A stretch of 5,706 nucleotides of DNA. Origin: Candidatus Vampirococcus lugosii (GTDB lineage Bacteria > Patescibacteriota > Gracilibacteria > Absconditabacterales > Absconditicoccaceae). Within the stretch, counting starts at the first letter, position 1. Every line of letters starts with the position of its first letter. The notes beneath the pieces are model-generated. The model was not told the DNA's origin and ran no database searches. It saw only the letters and a program-made list of their open reading frames with translations. The stretch is from NCBI RefSeq assembly GCF_018420025.1, contig NZ_JAEDAM010000070.1, positions 1-5,706 on the forward strand, read 5' to 3'. A program made the translations under genes and the position numbers. Below, piece by piece: positions 163 through 5,706 of this stretch.

Positions 163-401
163 ATAATACAAAACAAAGATTGTCAGAAGTTATGAAGCAA
201 GTATGAAAAATACCAGAATCATTAAAAGAATTTGCAGAAAATATGAGACAAAACACAAATCCAAAAACAGTATTATTAACAGCAATAATTTTTTCATTAT
301 GAAGTGGAGTAGTAAATGCAAGTAAAAGTGGTCAAGATATATTGGATCAAGCTATATCTTCATGAGATTCAGAATGATTTGTAGTGCAAATGTTTGAAAA
401 T
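163..401 (+). repeat. Left copy of a 239-bp direct repeat (partner 5468-5706, offset 5305 bp)
   Basis: Base-by-base comparison gives 5 mismatches in 239 bp, at 210/5515, 275/5580, 323/5628, 324/5629 and 386/5691. Homology starts sharply at 163/5468. Its right-hand limit is set only by the window end. Confidence 0.95.
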
Positions 402-575
402 AAAGATTATAAAGAATTGAAACAATTGGCAAGTATATTATGATTAGATCCAAATTTGATAAGAGATTGTCAGCAGTATGAGAATCTCTTGGATGAGATG
501 AATTGTAATGTTGACAAAACAGACAAAAAAATAAAATGATTATATGAGTATCTGAAAAAAGACAAGAAAGATTAA
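192..575 (+). CDS. Small hypothetical protein, copy 1 (127 aa from ATG 192), with one hydrophobic segment and a charged C-terminal half
   Basis: Table-25 translation, with TGA = G at 204, 300, 363, 375, 441 and 537: MKQVGKIPESLKEFAENMRQNTNPKTVLLTAIIFSLGSGVVNASKSGQDILDQAISSGDSEGFVVQMFENKDYKELKQLASILGLDPNLIRDCQQYENLLDEMNCNVDKTDKKIKGLYEYLKKDKKD, stop TAA 573-575. An in-frame TAG at 159-161 limits the 5' end; TTG 180 is an alternative start. The frame is supported by the paralog at 5398+, where 3 of the 5 nucleotide differences are synonymous in this frame. TVLLTAIIFSLGSGVV may be a membrane anchor. Confidence 0.65.
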
Positions 576-667
576 GAGCAGAAAGAGAACAGTTAGGCAA
601 CATCTAATTTTTGTTTTACTGAAATATCATCTTGAATACTGAAAATCAGCGAAACCAAAAACTTTTT

Positions 668-688
668 TTGCCCTATTCGGGCAATTTT
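668..688 (+). terminator. Candidate intrinsic terminator hairpin downstream of small-protein copy 1
   Basis: Stem TTGCCC (668-673), loop TATTC, stem GGGCAA (679-684), then TTTT (685-688). It sits in the only GC-enriched island of the intergenic region. Caveat: the aaRS-like reading frame is stop-free through this point, so the stretch could instead be coding. Confidence 0.3.
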
Positions 689-805
689 GGGGGGAGAAAA
701 AGGAATAAGGAAAAATGATTTTTAGAAAAAGTTGAATTTAAAACAAAAATTAGTATAAAATCAATAGTTTTATTTTTTAATTTTAAGAACATTGTTTACA
801 AAGCT

Positions 806-1921
806 TTGAATAATTGAGAGGTTGAGTATGTTTGAAATAACATAAACAAATCTCAAAAAATTAATTTTAAAGAAGTTGAAACTTCTTTACTTGAAAACAG
901 AGTTTCAAGAGTTAAAAATGAAAAAATGTTTTTGCATATTGCAAATATAGACAATACTATATTTCAAGCAACTGTAGAATATTTTGTTAAATTATGAGTA
1001 AAATGGACTAATTTACCACTTACAACTCTTATGATATCTTCTCCATGAGAAGTATATGCATGACAAAAATTAGATTATACAACAGATACTTTACCAATTG
1101 AACTTCCAAATTGGTTTTGAAATGATAGAAGAATATTTTTATCTGAAAGTTCTCAATTTTACTTAGAGTTACAATTACTTATAAAATGATTAGATCAAGT
1201 TTTTAGTATCTATAATTCTTTTAGAAAAGAAAAATCTGATGCAACACATTTATCTGAATTTCAACATATAGAGTATGAATGAAAAGTTGATTCAGAATGA
1301 AATATAGAAGTTTTTATGTGATTATTTGAAAATATTTTCAATTTTTTAGTAAAAAATAACAGAGAGGATTTACTATTTTTCTTATCAGAAGAAGAACTAA
1401 AAAATAAAATTGATTTAGTAAATAAATGATCTACAAGAATTTGATTTAGAGAAGCTTTAAATTTACTTTACAAGGAAACTTGAGATGAAAAATATAAAGA
1501 CTTTAGTTTAAAAAACTTTTGAACTTGGGAGGAAGTAAAATTAACAGAAATATTAAAAAGTAATGTAATTGTTGAAAAATTTCCAATGTTACAAATTCCT
1601 TTTTATCATGCTATAGCAAAAGAAGAAATTGATTGAGTTCCAGTTGCAAAAAATGCAGATTTTATACTTTATTGATTTAGAGAAACTATTTGAGCTTGAG
1701 AGAGAATAAAAGATAAAAATGTTTTACTAAAAAAAGCTGAAATATTTAATCTTCCAGAAAATGATTATTTGCCATATTTACAAACAAGAGATTTTTGAGA
1801 TTATGAAGTAACTAGTTGATTTTGAATGTGATGGCAAAGACTTACTCAATGGATTACAAACCAACCATATATCTATGAAGCAACTGTTTTTCCAAGAACT
1901 CATTTAGTTCCTAATCCTTAA
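806..1921 (+). CDS. Class IIb aminoacyl-tRNA-synthetase-like protein, AsnRS/AspRS-type catalytic core (start unresolved; the frame is open from 608; candidate starts are TTG 611/632/668/806 and ATG 926)
   Basis: Table-25 translation shows motif 2, FRKEKSDATHLSEFQHIEYE (1220-1279). It also shows ADFILYGFRETIGAGERI (compare AsnRS GEIIGGSQRE), then LPENDYLPYLQTRDFGDYEVT, which is collinear with the AsnRS-specific region. Motif 3 is SGFGMGWQR (1814-1840), with all three Gly encoded by TGA. The C-terminal FPR is typical of AsnRS/AspRS. Stop is TAA 1919-1921. The motif-1 region is FLHIANIDNTIFQATVEYFVKLGVKWTNLPLTT. Confidence 0.88.
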
Positions 1922-1956
1922 AAAGTAAAATTATTTTATTTATTAATTATAATATT

Positions 1957-2799
1957 ATGAAAAAAGATATTCTTACCAGTTTCTTTGATAAGTATTCAAA
2001 AAATGTTGATAATGCGGATAGTTTAGGTTTTTGGAAACTGTCAGATGCGATTATTGAAAGTATTATACAGAAACATATTGATAAATTGTATGATTGAAAA
2101 GAATTTATGATATTGGATGCATGATGTTGAACAGGAAGATGGATCAAGAAAATTATAAATAAAAATAAATGAAAAAAAATTAAGTTTATTGCTTATGATT
2201 TATTTGATAGTATGTTAAATAAAGCAAAAGAAAATTTACAATGATATGATAATGTTAAATTTATAAAATGAGATTTACAAGATATAAATTTAATTGAGGA
2301 TAATTCAATTGATTTGTGTATTAGTATTTATAGTCCTATAAGCTTTGTTGATAACTCAAGTTTAGTTATTTGACAAATTAAAAAAATTTTAAAAATTAAT
2401 TGAGAAGCTTTAATTATGTGACATGCTTTTCATAATGCTATTGATTCAAAAATCAATAATTATATGGCTGATAAAGAAGAATTGTCTAAATTAAATAATG
2501 AACAACTTGTAAAATGGAATGATATGTTACCTTATTTAAATACATATAGTATTGAAACTTTTGAAGAACTATGAAAGCAAAATTGATTAAATTGTGTATG
2601 ATGATATTGAGTTACTATATATTTAAAACCACAAAATGAAGATTGGGATCCTAATAATTCTCAAAAGAGTAAAATATCTTTGAAACTAGAAGAAGATAAA
2701 GATTTTTTTAACGAAATATATAGTTTAGAAATGGAAAATAATTCTAATAAAACTCTTGTAAATAGAGGTTTAAATATTTTAGCTTTTTATAAGAAATAA
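1957..2799 (+). CDS. Class I SAM-dependent methyltransferase (280 aa)
   Basis: ATG 1957, stop TAA 2797-2799. Motif I is ILDAGCGTG (2110-2136), with Gly codons TGA at 2122 and 2128. The post-I acidic residue lies in FIAYDLFD, followed by FIKGDLQDI, DLCISIYSPISF and LKINGEALIMG. I count 14 in-frame TGA codons against 3 GGN codons. The start is only 35 nt after the upstream stop. Confidence 0.9.
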
Positions 2800-2865
2800 A
2801 ATATTATAAATTTAATTATTAATATATAAAATATAAATGATACTAACAATGGTATAAAAAAAACA

Positions 2866-3726
2866 ATGGAATGCAATGATACTTCTTCAAATAAATCACA
2901 ATCTTATAAAGACTTGATGCAAAAAAAATTGCATAAAGTATTGTCTTTGTGAGAGATGTGAGAAGATGTTATTGATTATTTATCTTGACTTGATGAAGAG
3001 TCTTTATATGTTTTTCTATCTACAATCTTTTGAAGAAGAGTTCAAAACACTAGTTTAAAAGATGTAATGAGACAACGACAAAATTCAAGATTTTGTAGGC
3101 CAAAAGAAGAAAATGTTCATAAAAAAATATTAATAGAACAAACTATTTCACAAAATATGGACGATGATATGGAATTAGTAGAACTTTCTCCTTTAAATCC
3201 TCTGTGATTAAATACATTTCTTTCTGGCATTAGTCCTAATAGATGATTGTCCAGCATAAAATGACATGATGTCATGTCAGATGGTGCTTCTGTGATAGCT
3301 CTTCTTGGAGCAGAAAAAAGAAAAGAATTGTTTGGGGCACAAACAAAAGAAAAAATAAATCAAAAAGTATCATTATGTTCAAATAATGTATTAGTTAGGA
3401 ATCAAATTATGTATATTAATTGAAAAGTATGTAGTCCATTTCTCAGAGTTTGTCAAAATGGTGTATTTTGAAGGAAGTGAAATAGTGTGTCCTTTTTTTC
3501 TGAAGCAACAATAGAAGTGCTTGAATTATATTTAAAAACATTGATGAGTTTGAAAGAAAATGGTTATATAAACATGAGATATATAGATATATATTTGTCT
3601 GATATGAGAATTACTAGAAAATTATTTGAATCACATGTTGAATGTAATGATATTGATTTAGAATTACAGAAATTCAGAGAGTATCAATTAAAGCATCCAA
3701 TTGAAAATAACGGCAGTCAACTATAA
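2866..3726 (+). CDS. Hypothetical protein, upstream segment (286 aa) of a frame interrupted by TAA; possibly a divergent class IIa (HisRS/HisZ-like) fold
   Basis: ATG 2866 is the first in-frame ATG after the upstream gene. The table-25 frame is continuous to TAA 3724-3726: MECNDTSSNKSQSYKDLMQKK...ELVELSPLNPLGLNTFLSGISPNRGLSSIKGHDVMSDGASVIALLGAEKRKELFGAQ...HPIENNGSQL. The standard-code ORF 3487-3726 in the track is just the tail of this frame. Confidence 0.75.
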
Positions 3727-4089
3727 TTATTTGAATTTTTAGGTATTGATATCTCTCCATATGTTTGGGATCTTTCTAAGATTAATATTGATTTTGTTGA
3801 AACATATAATTTACACAATAATATAAATGATTTGAGAAAAATATATGAACGTTTAATCTATATAGAAAAAAAATATGAACAATTATGATTAAAATTTAAA
3901 TTTAATTTAGGAAGAACTACTTGAATATGACAATATAATTCTTTTACATTTAATTGAATATCATGAAGTGAAGTGGATTTTATGAATTGAGGATATTGTC
4001 CTGAATGGGCTAGCAAACTGACAACTCAAAATAAAGAAAAGGCATTTTTTTCTACACTATCTACTGATTTTATTGCTAATTATTTTTAA
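3727..4089 (+). CDS. Downstream segment (120 codons) in the same frame as 2866-3726, with no ATG/GTG near its 5' end; probably the C-terminal part of the same protein (split gene, pseudogene, readthrough or sequence error)
   Basis: The same frame continues directly after the TAA with no TAA/TAG until TAA 4087-4089. The other two frames of this interval contain stops. Translation: LFEFLGIDISPYVWDLSKINIDFVETYNLHNNINDLRKIYERLIYIEKKYEQLGLKFKFNLGRTTGIGQYNSFTFNGISGSEVDFMNGGYCPEWASKLTTQNKEKAFFSTLSTDFIANYF. The first canonical in-frame start is TTG 3832; the first ATG is 3982. Confidence 0.6.
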
Positions 4090-4151
4090 TCTAAAAATTC
4101 TTCATAGCTTGCAGTGGTATTATTTATTATTTAATTACCTTATTTAATAAT

Positions 4152-5168
4152 ATGAATTTAATAATTCCAAAAAAACTTGAAAGATGAGATACTATATGAA
4201 TTATATCTCCTTCAGCTTGATTGTGTCCTATATTTCCACATAGAGTTGATAATTGAATTAATATGCTTAAAAAATTATGATTTAATGTAAAATTTGCTTC
4301 TAATTCTAAGAATAATGATTGATATGTTTCTTGAACAGTTCAACAAAGAGTAGATGATATACATGAAATGTTTTTAGATAAAAATGTGAAGGCGATAATA
4401 TGTACAGTTTGATGAAATCATAGCAATCAATTATTAAAAAAAATTGACTATGAAATAATTAAAAATAATCCTAAAGTGTTTGTTTGATATTCTGATATAA
4501 CTGTTTTACACTATGCATTTTATAATAAAGCTAAATTACAAACTTATTATTGACCCTGCTTAATAACAGAATTTTGAGAGTATCCAGAAATGTTTGAGTA
4601 TTCAAGAAAATATTTTTTAAAAACCTTAACAGAGTGAGGAAAAATAAGTATTGACAAAATTAATTATTATACAGATGAGTTATTAAATTGGCTTAATAAA
4701 GAAGATTTAAAAAGACAAAGAAAGGTGTATAATATAGATTGATTTAAATGGATAAGAAGGGGTTATGTAAAATCAAAAATTATTTGATGATGTGTTCCCA
4801 GTGTTAATCATTTAATATGAACTGAATATTGGATAGATCCAGAAGATAAAGTTTATTTTATAGATTTACCTGAATGAAGTGAAATTTGAAAATGAATATC
4901 AATATCTAATTTAGATTCATATTTAACTGATTTAGATAATATAAATTTATTTGATAAAATATCTTGATTAATAGTTAGTGTGCCTTACTGATATGATGAT
5001 AATGAAAAAGAAAAACTGTATGAACTTATTAAAAAATTTGTTAATAAAAAAGATTATCCAGTTTTACTAAATTTCCCTATTTGACATACAGAACCTATGA
5101 TAACATTGCCTTTGATGTCTGAGATTGAGTTTGATTCAAACACAGAACAATTAATTATTTATAATTAA
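4152..5168 (+). CDS. Peptidase S66 family serine hydrolase (LD-carboxypeptidase / microcin C7 immunity MccF family), 338 aa
   Basis: ATG 4152, stop TAA 5166-5168. Family signatures under table 25 are GDTIGIISPSAG (4185-4220), GYVSGT, TVGGNHSNQLL (4410-4430) and VGYSDITVLH, which carries the nucleophile Ser codon at 4491-4493. FIDLPEG holds a candidate catalytic Glu, and PIGHTEP has the His codon at 5085-5087. Several of these Gly residues are TGA-encoded. Confidence 0.92.
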
Positions 5169-5397: not shown

Positions 5398-5706
5398 ATG
5401 ACAGAAAAAATGAATCAAAATATGGAAACAGTTGAACAAGTAGATACAAATAAACAAACTCTTGTAAATAATACAAAACAAAGATTGTCAGAAGTTATGA
5501 AGCAAGTATGAAAAGTACCAGAATCATTAAAAGAATTTGCAGAAAATATGAGACAAAACACAAATCCAAAAACAGTATTGTTAACAGCAATAATTTTTTC
5601 ATTATGAAGTGGAGTAGTAAATGCAAGCCAAAGTGGTCAAGATATATTGGATCAAGCTATATCTTCATGAGATTCAGAATGATTTGTAGTACAAATGTTT
5701 GAAAAT
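5398..5706 (+). CDS. Small hypothetical protein, copy 2 (partial, 103 codons to the window end), carrying a 36-residue N-terminal extension (23 of them encoded outside the repeat) that copy 1 lacks
   Basis: ATG 5398, table 25: MTEKMNQNMETVEQVDTNKQTLVNNTKQRLSEVMKQVGKVPESLKEFAENMRQNTNPKTVLLTAIIFSLGSGVVNASQSGQDILDQAISSGDSEGFVVQMFEN... From codon 24 onward it is nearly identical to copy 1, with amino-acid differences I->V and K->Q. Confidence 0.7.
5468..5706 (+). repeat. Right copy of the 239-bp direct repeat (partner 163-401)
   Basis: See the left copy. It is truncated by the window end, so the true repeat may extend up to about 174 bp further, to the equivalent of 575. Confidence 0.95.

Follow-up and report, generated by a model that had tools for sequence, protein, structure and literature searches.

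The question raised by this locus is whether four adjacent genes of Candidatus Vampirococcus lugosii, which is an ultra-small predatory bacterium, serve housekeeping metabolism or belong with the pathways of two antibiotics, agrocin 84 and microcin C, which mimic an activated amino acid and inhibit translation. The four genes are rather likely to represent the core of a pathway that makes an aminoacyl-adenylate mimic and protects its producer against it.

Layout and genetic code of the contig

The window analysed is the whole contig, studied at its full length of 5706 bp (GC 23%). Under table 11 it contains no long open reading frames (ORFs), and five or six appear on the + strand when UGA is read as sense. 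Given that UGA sits at canonical glycine positions, for example in motif I of the methyltransferase (LDAGCGTG), code 25 (UGA=Gly) applies, and the following features are read with it:

163..401, no strand: left copy of a 239-nt direct repeat, 98% identical to 5468-5706
192..575, + strand: copy 1 of a predicted small membrane protein, 127 aa, no family match
791..1921 (or 806-1921), + strand: AgnA-like truncated AsnRS paralog, 376 aa, class IIb catalytic core only
1957..2799, + strand: class I SAM-dependent methyltransferase of "type B", 280 aa, Pfam Methyltransf_31/25/11
2866..3726, + strand: gene 3, N-terminal 286 codons, HisRS/HisZ-fold class II aminoacyl-tRNA synthetase (aaRS)-like, no anticodon-binding domain
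3724..3726, + strand: in-frame TAA of gene 3, aligned with a TGA (Gly, code 25) of the intact orthologue
3727..4089, + strand: gene 3, C-terminal 120 codons, same frame, no plausible start codon
4152..5168, + strand: MccF-clade S66 serine hydrolase, 338 aa, AgnC5 homologue, Pfam S66 N- and C-terminal domains
5398..5706, + strand: copy 2 of the small membrane-protein gene, with a longer, different N-terminus, running past the contig end

The four genes of the cluster all lie on the + strand, and the intergenic gaps of 35, 66 and 62 nt given by an earlier sequence-only reading proved exact on re-measurement; its lack of internal terminators was also borne out, as no terminator-like site was seen on the + strand within the cluster in a scan of the contig. 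Promoter-like matches in the contig scan were at chance level (54 vs 49.9 expected) in this DNA of 23% GC, so the scan is little informative. The copies of the direct repeat (163-401, 5468-5706) bracket the cluster, and the small membrane-protein gene at 192..575 probably flanks it rather than being a member.

Families of the four proteins

The family assignments proposed earlier hold for all four genes. The first product matches Pfam tRNA-synt_2 (1e-29) and keeps class II motifs 2 and 3 intact, and it spans positions 94-446 of the 451 of the NCBIfam asnS model with only 149 bits against a 414-bit cutoff. Given this score and the absence of the anticodon-binding domain, its earlier alternative identity as a housekeeping asnS is not sustained, and one related genome has a genuine AsnRS beside its own copy of the gene. 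The proposed start, TTG at 806, requires a qualification, as the orthologues (376 aa) begin with an ATG that aligns at 791, where the contig has ATT; the TTG is the next possible start, and either codon may act as one.

Homology of this protein with AgnA of the agrocin 84 cluster extends over its full length (25% identity over 374 aa, E = 5e-26), and counting against an agn relationship is the fact that it is equally close to AgnA and to genuine AsnRS, at ~25-26% each. The two proteins share derived features that are absent from canonical AsnRS/AspRS, i.e., the replacement of AEG[AG]..F by SSP..[ST]D[ST]LP[IV], an acidic residue within L[SA][ED]S.QF, a motif 2 loop that is one residue shorter and has lost its Arg, and GAGER. 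The orthologue from A. praedator is 94% identical across genera, compared with 23-33% for the neighbouring proteins, which indicates recent purifying selection; this degree of conservation appears more like that of a housekeeping enzyme than of a typical biosynthetic core, which counts against a link to the agn or microcin C (mcc) pathways.

Truncated AsnRS paralogs without the anticodon domain have a precedent as asparagine synthetases. The protein may thus be an AS-AR/AsnA-type enzyme, converting Asp to Asn via beta-aspartyl-AMP, or an unconventional AsnRS, with the S66 protein, the methyltransferase and gene 3 in unrelated or supporting roles in amino-acid or peptide salvage. PDB entries 1nnh and 3p8t are among its matches, the NCBIfam AsnA models are its second-best match, RefSeq labels the AgnA-like genes "asparagine synthetase A", and the very high conservation and the seemingly vertical distribution in reduced genomes fit such a role, as do the genuine AsnRS or AspRS genes that adjoin some related loci and the AsnC-type regulators found in eight. 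The AsnA score, however, is 90 against a cutoff of 389, and this explanation leaves unexplained a near-obligate linkage to an MccF-clade hydrolase with an adenine-stacking Trp, the MccD/AgnB1-type SAM enzymes and the Pro, Lys, Leu, Met, His and Ala aaRS paralogs of related loci, and parts and order that match the agrocin 84 cluster, all of which make it quite unlikely.

The S66 protein had been considered as a possible LdcA, an identity rejected here, given that its PDB matches place it much closer to MccF (BA_5613 MccF-like, 6e-53; E. coli MccF, 3e-47) than to LdcA (about 1e-9) and that the adenine-stacking Trp186 is kept. It is also homologous to AgnC5 (31% identity, E = 6e-57), and it retains the equivalents of Ser118 and His311, with Glu243 replaced by Asp. 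Among the S66 proteins of related clusters (n=63), Ser118 and His311 are kept in 62, the acidic triad residue in 62 and Trp186 in 60. The Asp/Asn specificity suggested by the sequence-only reading is not supported, as the residues with which MccF binds Asp (N220, R246, K247) lack conservation and different loci have different aaRS-like partner genes.

The methyltransferase occupies the position which, in most related loci, is held by an AgnB1/MccD-like "type A" enzyme (type A in 37 loci, type B in 17). Its similarity to MccD (E = 0.98) and to AgnB1 is not significant, which in both cases counts against the agn/mcc reading, and its similarity to AgnC3 is weak. The MccD-type decoration proposed earlier is thus not supported for the enzyme of this contig, although the type A methyltransferases in 37 related loci are homologous to MccD.

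Gene 3, which had been read as an intact ORF at 2866-4089, is split into 286 + 120 codons by the overlooked TAA. Its N-terminal part is identical to NCBI hypothetical protein P0001, and the uninterrupted orthologue has 421 aa; since the TAA aligns with a TGA (Gly) of the latter, a single TGA>TAA change is indicated, which, from this alignment, would be either a nonsense mutation or a sequencing error. The C-terminal part carries the most conserved motifs of the family (R-x-x-G-x-G-Y-Y, D-G-G-x-x-x-W and S-G-x-G-x-E-L).

The suggestion that gene 3 encodes a second aaRS-like protein was confirmed by structure prediction on the intact orthologue P0002 (AF2 model, pLDDT 88), for which the top 50 Foldseek matches in the PDB were all HisZ, HisRS or GCN2 HisRS-like domains (E about 1e-11), with HisZ as the best structural match (target-normalised TM-score up to 0.67); PF13393 is matched by 30 of 81 family members. 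R360 is invariant in the family and seems to preserve the catalytic Arg found in the HisRS "RGLDYY" motif, and the motif 3 Arg is missing. Given this loss and the interruption, gene 3 may be non-catalytic, which counts against the agn/mcc reading, as does the lack of a detectable relationship to AgnC1.

It is possible, if doubtful, that the cassette of V. lugosii is degenerating and has lost its function, whatever its role elsewhere. The TAA lies upstream of the most conserved motifs, the ATG of the first gene has become ATT, and the cluster sits on a short contig with a copy of a repeated gene on either side. Against this, the three remaining ORFs are intact and free of frameshifts, each having 14-23 UGA-Gly codons in frame, the first protein has the 94% identity noted above, the TGA/TAA difference, of one base, may have arisen in assembly, and ATT or TTG may start the first gene.

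Recurrence of the neighbourhood and proposed pathway

Patescibacteria, DPANN archaea and haloarchaea contributed about 76 non-redundant related loci to the comparison set. The core of the gene set is widespread in tiny symbiotic bacteria and archaea, far beyond the code-25 genomes in which its conservation had been proposed as a check, and no published description of it in these organisms was found in the literature. Of the 930 ORFs that lie no more than 6 kb from the aaRS-like gene, 61 are S66 genes, compared with 1 of 394 further off (76 loci; Fisher p = 6e-9), and an S66 gene is present within 6 kb in 37 of the 42 loci that are flanked by 5 kb or more on either side. This linkage also holds in archaea, which have no murein.

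The exact gene set of the contig was found again in seven loci. Of the 76 loci, 39 have an AgnB1 orthologue (up to 45% identity, E = 4e-85) and 58 an AgnC5 orthologue (up to 38% identity, E = 7e-75). In other loci the slot of gene 3 is filled by ProRS-, AlaRS-, LysRS-, LeuRS- or MetRS-like genes, mostly divergent paralogs, with a canonical copy adjoining in some loci, as with AgnB2. Accessory genes include matches to the MccE N-terminal decarboxylase (3 loci) and to the MccE C-terminal immunity GNAT (2 loci), an Acetyltransf_3 GNAT in L004, HIT hydrolases (9 loci), DrrA-type exporters in several loci, ATP-grasp ligases, NUDIX proteins and kinases.

Given the asnS score far below its cutoff, an S66 protein nearer to MccF than to LdcA and the recurrence of the neighbourhood, the mundane reading fails; none of the outcomes set beforehand as refuting (a sole, orthologous AsnRS, an S66 protein nested in LdcA, or no recurrence) was observed. 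The comparative evidence backs the earlier idea of a non-canonical locus without ThiF/MccB that handles an aminoacyl-adenylate-like antimetabolite, a function that we infer. The agn and mcc pathways yield an N-acyl phosphoramidate nucleotide, a non-hydrolysable mimic of an aminoacyl-adenylate that acts as an inhibitor of an aminoacyl-tRNA synthetase, and they also shield the producer from this compound.

In a corresponding scheme, in which we infer all of the roles, the AgnA-like enzyme, having lost tRNA anticodon binding and with a remodelled acceptor-side loop, would use ATP to join an amino-acid-derived carboxamide to a nucleoside phosphate, as proposed for AgnA. The HisRS/HisZ-fold protein would supply or present the amino-acid moiety, and the use of different aaRS paralogs in this slot suggests that the amino acid, and hence the target, would differ among loci. 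The SAM enzyme would then decorate the product, and the MccF-like S66 would hold the adenine via its conserved Trp and cut the acyl-N bond, a cleavage that would either protect the producer from its own product, the function demonstrated for MccF, or serve in maturation. Given the premature stop in gene 3 and the lost ATG of the first gene, V. lugosii may have an impaired pathway. Also counting against the agn/mcc reading, neither an exporter gene nor a resistant aaRS copy is present on the contig, which spans only 5.7 kb.

This absence of an exporter would suit a cassette that makes no toxin and neutralises or recycles aminoacyl-nucleotide antimetabolites, or damaged aminoacyl-adenylates, encountered in close contact with hosts; the S66, HIT and GNAT proteins would then detoxify, and the extra aaRS paralogs would provide back-up. 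Stand-alone S66, HIT and GNAT genes belong to classes shown to confer resistance (PMC9239234; PMC8323819), and these organisms live attached to other cells (PMC8080830). Such a role is nevertheless unlikely, as it accounts neither for the AgnA-like enzyme, which is invariant, uses ATP and has its adenylation motifs intact, nor for the MccD-like and decarboxylase tailoring enzymes, ATP-grasp ligases and DrrA-type exporters of several loci, components which are biosynthetic in known systems.

Anticodon-domain-less aaRS paralogs also act on macromolecules, such as GluQRS on tRNA queuosine and EpmA on EF-P. The AgnA-like enzyme might similarly aminoacylate a tRNA base, a protein or an envelope component, with the methyltransferase co-modifying the target and the S66 protein as the eraser, and weak EpmA/GenX matches, high conservation and the translation genes that are common neighbours of the cassette are compatible with this. 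No acceptor-gene candidate co-varies with the cassette, however, the accessory genes (MccD, MccE and MccF homologues, HIT, NUDIX, kinases, exporters, ATP-grasp) are of the kinds usually met in small-molecule pathways, and the agn homology and synteny point to a small molecule, which makes this very improbable.

Comparison with known systems

Among known systems, the agrocin 84 (agn) cluster of pAgK84 from Rhizobium rhizogenes K84 comes closest, through agnA, agnB1 and agnC5, rather than microcin C, the only one named in the sequence-only reading. The order in pAgK84 is agnA, a SAM enzyme, the resistant LeuRS agnB2 and the aaRS-like agnC1, with the MccF-like agnC5 further on, together with NUDIX and ABC genes. 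AgnB2 serves as the immunity LeuRS, and formation of the phosphoramide bond is the role proposed for AgnA (PMC8323819), although the agrocin 84 pathway is itself unproven, which counts against the agn/mcc reading. On balance, the four genes probably constitute a minimal, lineage-specific version of the agn core and, in part, of mcc.

Shared with agn are a truncated AsnRS-like protein directly followed by a SAM enzyme, a class II aaRS-like protein of roughly 400 aa and an MccF-like S66, to which related loci, not the contig, add an extra aaRS paralog (cf. AgnB2), NUDIX and ABC export. The Woesearchaeota loci L034, L083 and L086 have partly the same order (aaRS-like, methyltransferase, LeuRS-like), continued in L083 and L086 by a class IIa-like gene. 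The contig differs in lacking AgnB2, AgnC1-C4, C6-C7, AgnD-G and the opine/sugar "Trojan horse" genes, its methyltransferase is from another subfamily, and its gene 3 is HisRS-like and unrelated to AgnC1; AgnA (~25% identical) scores best against "AsnA" models, whereas the contig protein scores best against asnS. The hosts here are CPR and DPANN lineages, whereas a 2021 review reported agn-like clusters only in Ensifer and Actinobacteria, with archaea unmentioned (PMC8323819).

The E. coli mcc and McC-like systems, in which the warhead is detoxified by MccF, MccE2 and MccH enzymes (PMC9239234), share the MccF-type S66 with the same catalytic Ser/His and adenine-stacking Trp, and related loci add MccD-like SAM enzymes, MccE N-terminal-like PLP decarboxylases, MccE C-terminal-like GNATs and MccH-like HIT hydrolases. 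The contig, on the other hand, has no MccB/ThiF enzyme, MccA precursor peptide gene or MccC pump, and neither the Asp-binding residues of MccF nor an MccD-like methyltransferase.

AS-AR (PDB 1nnh, 3p8t) and AsnA have in common with the first protein an AsnRS-derived core with ATP-binding motifs and no anticodon-binding domain, but AS-AR has about 294 aa, with a phmmer alignment confined to the C-terminal third, and the contig protein falls far under the AsnA cutoffs in an agn/mcc-like context. HisZ and the GCN2 HisRS-like domain, which are non-aminoacylating HisRS paralogs, share with gene 3 the HisRS-type class II core minus the anticodon-binding domain; gene 3 differs from HisZ in having no hisG partner here and an N-terminal helical extra of ~110 aa, and from HisRS in not keeping the motif 3 Arg.

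Finally, phosmidosine (Streptomyces) is linked by chemical analogy only, and its gene cluster was not found in the literature searched. This N-acyl phosphoramidate nucleotide resembles Pro-AMP, being a natural mimic of an aminoacyl-adenylate whose amino acid is neither Asp nor Leu, and therefore shows that such mimics exist for other amino acids, which fits the variable aaRS paralogs of these loci.

Reading frame and state of the cluster

Under the standard bacterial code (table 11), the window, an entire 5706-bp contig of Ca. Vampirococcus lugosii, holds no long ORFs, and a row of + strand ORFs emerges once UGA is read as sense. Given that canonical glycines are coded by UGA, such as two Gly of the methyltransferase motif LDAGCGTG, code 25 applies, which results in the following features:

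192-575, + strand, small predicted membrane-protein gene, copy 1, no family match
791/806-1921, + strand, aaRS-like gene (gene 1)
1957-2799, + strand, methyltransferase (gene 2)
2866-4089, + strand, gene 3
4152-5168, + strand, S66 gene (gene 4)
5398-5706, + strand, small predicted membrane-protein gene, copy 2, no family match

The intergenic gaps of 35, 66 and 62 nt given by the sequence-only reading match the recomputed values, and the lack of internal terminators was borne out by the scan, which returned 0 + strand terminator-like sites inside the cluster. The promoter scan of the window was at chance level and uninformative in this DNA of 23% GC, neither the tRNA scan nor the Rfam scan returned a match, and PADLOC recognized no known defence system there, its sole return being a generic methyltransferase match. 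The 215-nt leader 5' of the aaRS-like gene (window 576-790), which has no Rfam match, includes GGGCAATTTTGGGGGGAGAAAAAGGAATAAGG, a run rich in G and as such unusual at 23% GC.

Two features missed by the sequence-only reading bear on the state of this copy. The first is an in-frame TAA in gene 3 (3724-3726), which aligns with a TGA (Gly) codon of the intact 421-aa orthologue, and thus reflects a single TGA>TAA change; in a code-25 genome, any UGA-Gly codon is one transition from a stop. The second is the start of gene 1, which is ATG in Ca. Absconditicoccus praedator and in the related locus L002, and ATT in the window (791-793), where the next candidate start after 791 is the TTG at 806. Unless the TAA is an assembly error, gene 3 is cut off ahead of its most conserved motifs, and the V. 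lugosii copy of the cassette may be impaired, the ORFs of the cluster other than gene 3 being intact.

The cluster has on both sides a 239-nt direct repeat (163-401 and 5468-5706, 98% identical), which is the part common to both copies of the small membrane-protein gene, their upstream sequences and N-termini being different. As the contig ends inside the second copy, the assembly was probably broken by this repeat, through which the cluster could also be excised or duplicated. A similar repeat-rich setting was observed in A. praedator (locus L001, CP054059), where the cluster is flanked by paralogous unknown families (8914-9809 and 14416-18166), which include proteins of 213, 220 and 254 aa with 45-57% identity, and proteins of 77, 120 and 624 aa with common stretches of ~60-95 aa that are 91-97% identical.

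The four encoded proteins

The match of gene 1 is confined to the catalytic core of the class IIb synthetases, in which class II motifs 2 and 3 are intact. Its alignment to the NCBIfam asnS model covers positions 94-446 of 451, with a score of 149 bits where the cutoff is 414 bits, and a second equivalog model gives 132 against 343 bits. No PF01336 match was obtained, which leaves the protein without the N-terminal OB-fold anticodon-binding domain, and this domain is present in the genuine AsnRS of the related locus L004. A canonical asnS was thus rejected, based on the missing OB-fold domain and on the scores below the equivalog cutoffs.

The homologues of gene 1 number in the hundreds, with ~376 aa, and the copy of A. 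praedator is 94-95% identical. In a search of plasmid proteins, gene 1 was aligned over 95% of its length with agnA, the "Agrocin84-synthetase" of pAgK84 (E = 5e-26 over 374 aa). Derived changes that are absent from canonical AsnRS and AspRS are common to AgnA, the homologue from an Exiguobacterium plasmid and the CPR/DPANN family. They lie around the loop on the acceptor side, the "QSxQ" motif that binds the amino acid, and the loop of motif 2.

The most serious rival explanation is that gene 1 is an asparagine synthetase and the cassette performs a housekeeping role, given that truncated AsnRS paralogs are known as Asn synthetases, and that gene 1 is unusually conserved (94% between genera, with 23-33% for its neighbours). 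Against the NCBIfam models of asparagine synthetase A (AsnA), the best score of gene 1 was 90 bits and that of AgnA 199 bits, with a cutoff of 389 bits. The correspondence with the agrocin 84 (agn) cluster is left unexplained by a housekeeping role. RefSeq calls AgnA and its relatives "asparagine synthetase A" (11998-13059 of the plasmid record L089, and other plasmid records), and the CPR/DPANN relatives of gene 1 are variously labelled "asparagine--tRNA ligase" or "amino acid--tRNA ligase-related protein". It is probable that the proteins of the cassette are systematically misannotated, as "asparagine synthetase A", "asparagine--tRNA ligase" and "LD-carboxypeptidase".

Gene 4 contains both the N- and C-terminal domains of S66, and its assignment to the MccF proteins is upheld by similarity to PDB entries, which is far greater for BA_5613 (6e-53) and E. 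coli MccF (3e-47) than for genuine LdcA (~1e-9). The equivalents of Ser118 and His311 are present in the protein, and that of Glu243 is Asp; in the S66 relatives associated with the clusters, Ser118 and His311 are found in 62 of 63, as is the acidic residue of the triad (E in 48, D in 14). The adenine-stacking Trp186, whose role in E. coli MccF has been described (PMC8323819), is present in gene 4, in AgnC5 and in 60 of the 63 relatives. The residues of MccF that recognize Asp (N220, R246 and K247) are P, G and I in gene 4, and vary across the family. The mundane possibility of an LdcA that recycles peptidoglycan was rejected, based on the PDB similarity, on Trp186 and on the presence of S66 alongside the cassette in archaea, from which murein is absent.

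Gene 2 encodes a generic class I SAM methyltransferase of a subfamily referred to here as type B, to distinguish it from the AgnB1/MccD-like type A. It occupies the position of AgnB1 next to the agnA homologue, with no BLAST match to AgnB1, and its suggested analogy with MccD did not hold (E = 0.98).

Searched alone, gene 3 gave no match to Pfam, NCBIfam or the PDB sequences, and appeared orphan-like in word-index homology searches (2-4 matches). An exhaustive HMMER search gathered a family of 983 cluster representatives at E ≤ 1e-3, and Pfam tRNA-synt_His (PF13393) was matched by 30 of 81 family members (best E = 2e-9). For the intact orthologue, a confident AF2 model (pLDDT 88, pTM 0.86) retrieved HisZ, HisRS or GCN2 HisRS-like domains in all of the top 50 matches of a PDB structure search (E ~1e-11). 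Given that the matches of the profile to PDB sequences were marginal (E = 0.02-0.2) and were lost with a deeper profile, the assignment of the fold is based on the Pfam counts and the structure search. The earlier suggestion of a second aaRS-like protein thus gains a predicted HisRS-like catalytic fold. The protein has no HGTP anticodon-binding domain, the family terminating in S-G-x-G-x-E-L, and lacks the motif 3 Arg of genuine HisRS; an invariant Arg in R-x-x-G-x-G-Y-Y is aligned with the "RGLDYY" motif of HisRS. Homology to AgnC1 was also considered and rejected (hhalign probability of 0.35%).

A recurrent neighbourhood in Patescibacteria and archaea

Conservation of the neighbourhood, which the sequence-only reading had singled out for checking, was found in the first seven genomes examined, all of which (7/7) have S66 beside or near the aaRS-like gene, with variable genes between the two. 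A scan of GTDB species representatives for gene 1 returned 80 loci (38-82% identity) from Patescibacteria, DPANN (Woese-, Pace-, Nano-, Micr- and Aenigmatarchaeota), Marsarchaeota and haloarchaea (Natrinema and Haloarcula). The ORFs of the loci were called under the code appropriate to each genome and scored with local HMMs, and 76 non-redundant loci were counted.

S66 lies within 6 kb of the aaRS-like gene in 58 of these 76 loci, most of those without it being cut by a contig end, and is present in 37 of the 42 well-flanked loci. This corresponds to 61 of 930 ORFs at up to 6 kb and 1 of 394 further out (p = 6e-9). A methyltransferase is found in the adjacent position in at least 54 of the 76 loci, of type A in 37 and of type B, that of the window, in 17. 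The exact set of the window (aaRS-like gene, type B methyltransferase, gene 3 and S66) was found again in 7 loci.

The related loci usually have an extra aaRS-related gene, which is variable. Most of the sampled extra genes miss the NCBIfam equivalog cutoffs, and in some loci the extra gene adjoins a canonical copy of the same specificity.

Extra aaRS-related genes in the related loci
ProRS-like, class IIa: 27 loci
Full-length class IIb (sampled genes LysRS-like, or canonical LysRS, AspRS or AsnRS): 18 loci
Gene 3 family: 14 loci
Class I, LeuRS- or MetRS-like: 10 loci
AlaRS-related: 6 loci

Further families that recur in the neighbourhood are the HIT hydrolases (in 9 loci), GNATs, NUDIX proteins, APH-type kinases, ATP-grasp ligases, PLP/pyruvoyl decarboxylases, radical-SAM enzymes and DrrA-type ABC exporters. 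A housekeeping role for the cassette does not explain why MccF-, MccD-, MccE- and HIT-type genes and the paralogs of unrelated synthetases should be its near-obligate company. The richest version of the cluster is found in locus L003 (9135-17131), with an AdoMet decarboxylase, a type A methyltransferase, a HAD phosphatase, a 652-aa APH-kinase/HD protein, S66, NUDIX, an ABC exporter and a P-loop kinase-like protein; by analogy with microcin C, the AdoMet decarboxylase and the MccD-like enzyme suggest a decoration of the aminopropyl type.

Two further observations concern the possible movement of genes. In the code-25 locus L004, the canonical AsnRS (6514-7839, - strand) has no in-frame TGA, and the neighbouring genes carry 7-18, and the HIT and methyltransferase genes of L006 (7534-7989 and 9155-9967), also of code 25, are TGA-free as well, which may mean that these genes arrived recently from organisms with the standard code, or that UGA is strongly avoided in them. 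In addition, the free-living haloarchaea Natrinema (L061 and L062) and Haloarcula (L074) have an AgnA-like gene of ~45% identity, found in both Natrinema loci with a type A methyltransferase, a 948-aa LeuRS and a DrrA-type ABC ATPase, and in L062 also with S66 nearby. Transfer of the gene between haloarchaea and DPANN symbionts is possible.

Relation to agrocin 84 and microcin C, and a proposed pathway

In pAgK84, agnA is followed by the SAM enzyme agnB1, the agrocin-resistant LeuRS agnB2 and agnC1 (~411 aa), with agnC5, annotated as an "MccF-like protein", further on, and with NUDIX and ABC genes upstream. In the window, AgnA is represented by gene 1 and AgnC5 by the S66 protein (31% identity, E = 6e-57), the methyltransferase at the position of AgnB1 has, unlike the type A of related loci, no BLAST match to AgnB1, and the slot of AgnC1, for which a remote resemblance to ProRS has been reported (PMC8323819), is taken by a different family of aaRS-like fold (gene 3). 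An AgnB2-like resistant aaRS and an exporter are absent from the 5.7-kb contig, but both are found in many related loci. Orthologues of AgnB1 are present in 39 loci (up to 45% identity, E = 4e-85), at the methyltransferase position next to gene 1 in 37-39 of the related loci, and those of AgnC5 in 58.

The comparison with microcin C (mcc), for which the sequences of the authentic MccC7 operon were used as references, revealed no ORF for the ThiF-type enzyme MccB or the peptide MccA in the window, and none among the annotated recurrent neighbour families. On the side of the likenesses, the type A methyltransferases of 37 loci are homologous to MccD over nearly its full length, and the N-terminal decarboxylase and C-terminal immunity GNAT of MccE have counterparts in several loci. 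The known detoxifiers of the microcin C warhead are MccF, the MccE2 GNAT and the HIT hydrolase MccH (PMC9239234). The genes agnA, agnB1 and agnC5 are thus a conserved core in Patescibacteria, DPANN and some haloarchaea, which is joined by tailoring and immunity modules of the microcin C type and by swappable aaRS paralogs.

Given this, the cassette is rather likely to be the core of an agn-type pathway for aminoacyl-adenylate mimics. The confidence in this mechanism is moderate. The analysis shows homology, conserved linkage, conservation of the residues for catalysis and base stacking, and the fold adopted by gene 3, and the remaining mechanism is inferred. The AgnA-like enzyme would probably spend ATP in joining an amide derived from an amino acid to a nucleoside phosphate, by analogy with AgnA, whose own role is a proposal. 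The swappable aaRS-like partner (HisRS/HisZ-like in the window) would probably provide or present the amino-acid part, and so set the target, the SAM enzyme would decorate the product, and S66 would probably cleave the acyl-N bond of the adenine-containing product, for self-immunity or maturation. The fixed Asp/Asn specificity that had been envisaged is not favoured, in view of the variable partner aaRS and the variable residues of the S66 acyl pocket. A detoxification-only island would accommodate the hydrolases, but is improbable, as the adenylating core and the tailoring genes do not fit, and the modification of a macromolecule, as in GluQRS or EpmA, is very unlikely, with no acceptor gene to support it.

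The agn-type pathway predicts a family of natural inhibitors directed against different synthetases, the candidates being those for Pro, Lys, Leu, Met, His, Ala, Asp and Asn, and its core narrows the set of enzymes for the key N-P bond chemistry. It may be speculated, tentatively, that episymbiotic or predatory CPR and DPANN commonly carry a compact toolkit for such mimics (an AgnA-like enzyme, a SAM enzyme of the MccD/AgnB1 type or type B, an MccF-like hydrolase and an interchangeable aaRS paralog that chooses the host synthetase to be poisoned), to be used in shutting down or manipulating the translation of the host cell, and that the trio is the minimal chemistry, long unknown, for the N-acyl phosphoramidate bond of the agrocin 84 type without MccB. 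The core offers a concrete and testable molecular mechanism for a possible interference with host cells by parasites and predators of ultra-small size, Vampirococcus among them.

A plasmid-borne cluster of the agn-like kind was also observed in Exiguobacterium sp. Helios (L090, NZ_CP053558, 5969-16880), with an AlaRS-related protein (L004_unk366 family), an MccD/AgnB1-type methyltransferase, an AgnA-like enzyme, a glycosyltransferase, ATP-grasp proteins, a deoxynucleoside kinase and a 595-aa AlaRS. This gene set points to a compound that is Ala-directed, with AlaRS as the immunity copy.

In a survey of agn-like clusters in a review published in 2021, the hosts were limited to a single strain of Ensifer and certain Actinobacteria, archaea being unmentioned (PMC8323819). 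Literature searches on CPR and DPANN returned nothing on the combination of genes in the cassette, and neither aaRS nor Asn metabolism comes up in the genome paper of V. lugosii. Systems of this kind are already known from the agrocin 84 and McC-type clusters for aaRS inhibitors. What appears to be new is the compact set of an AgnA-like core, a type B methyltransferase, a HisRS-fold partner and an MccF-like hydrolase without MccB, together with the mixing of agn and mcc modules around one conserved trio, and the wide spread of this trio through CPR, DPANN and haloarchaeal genomes.
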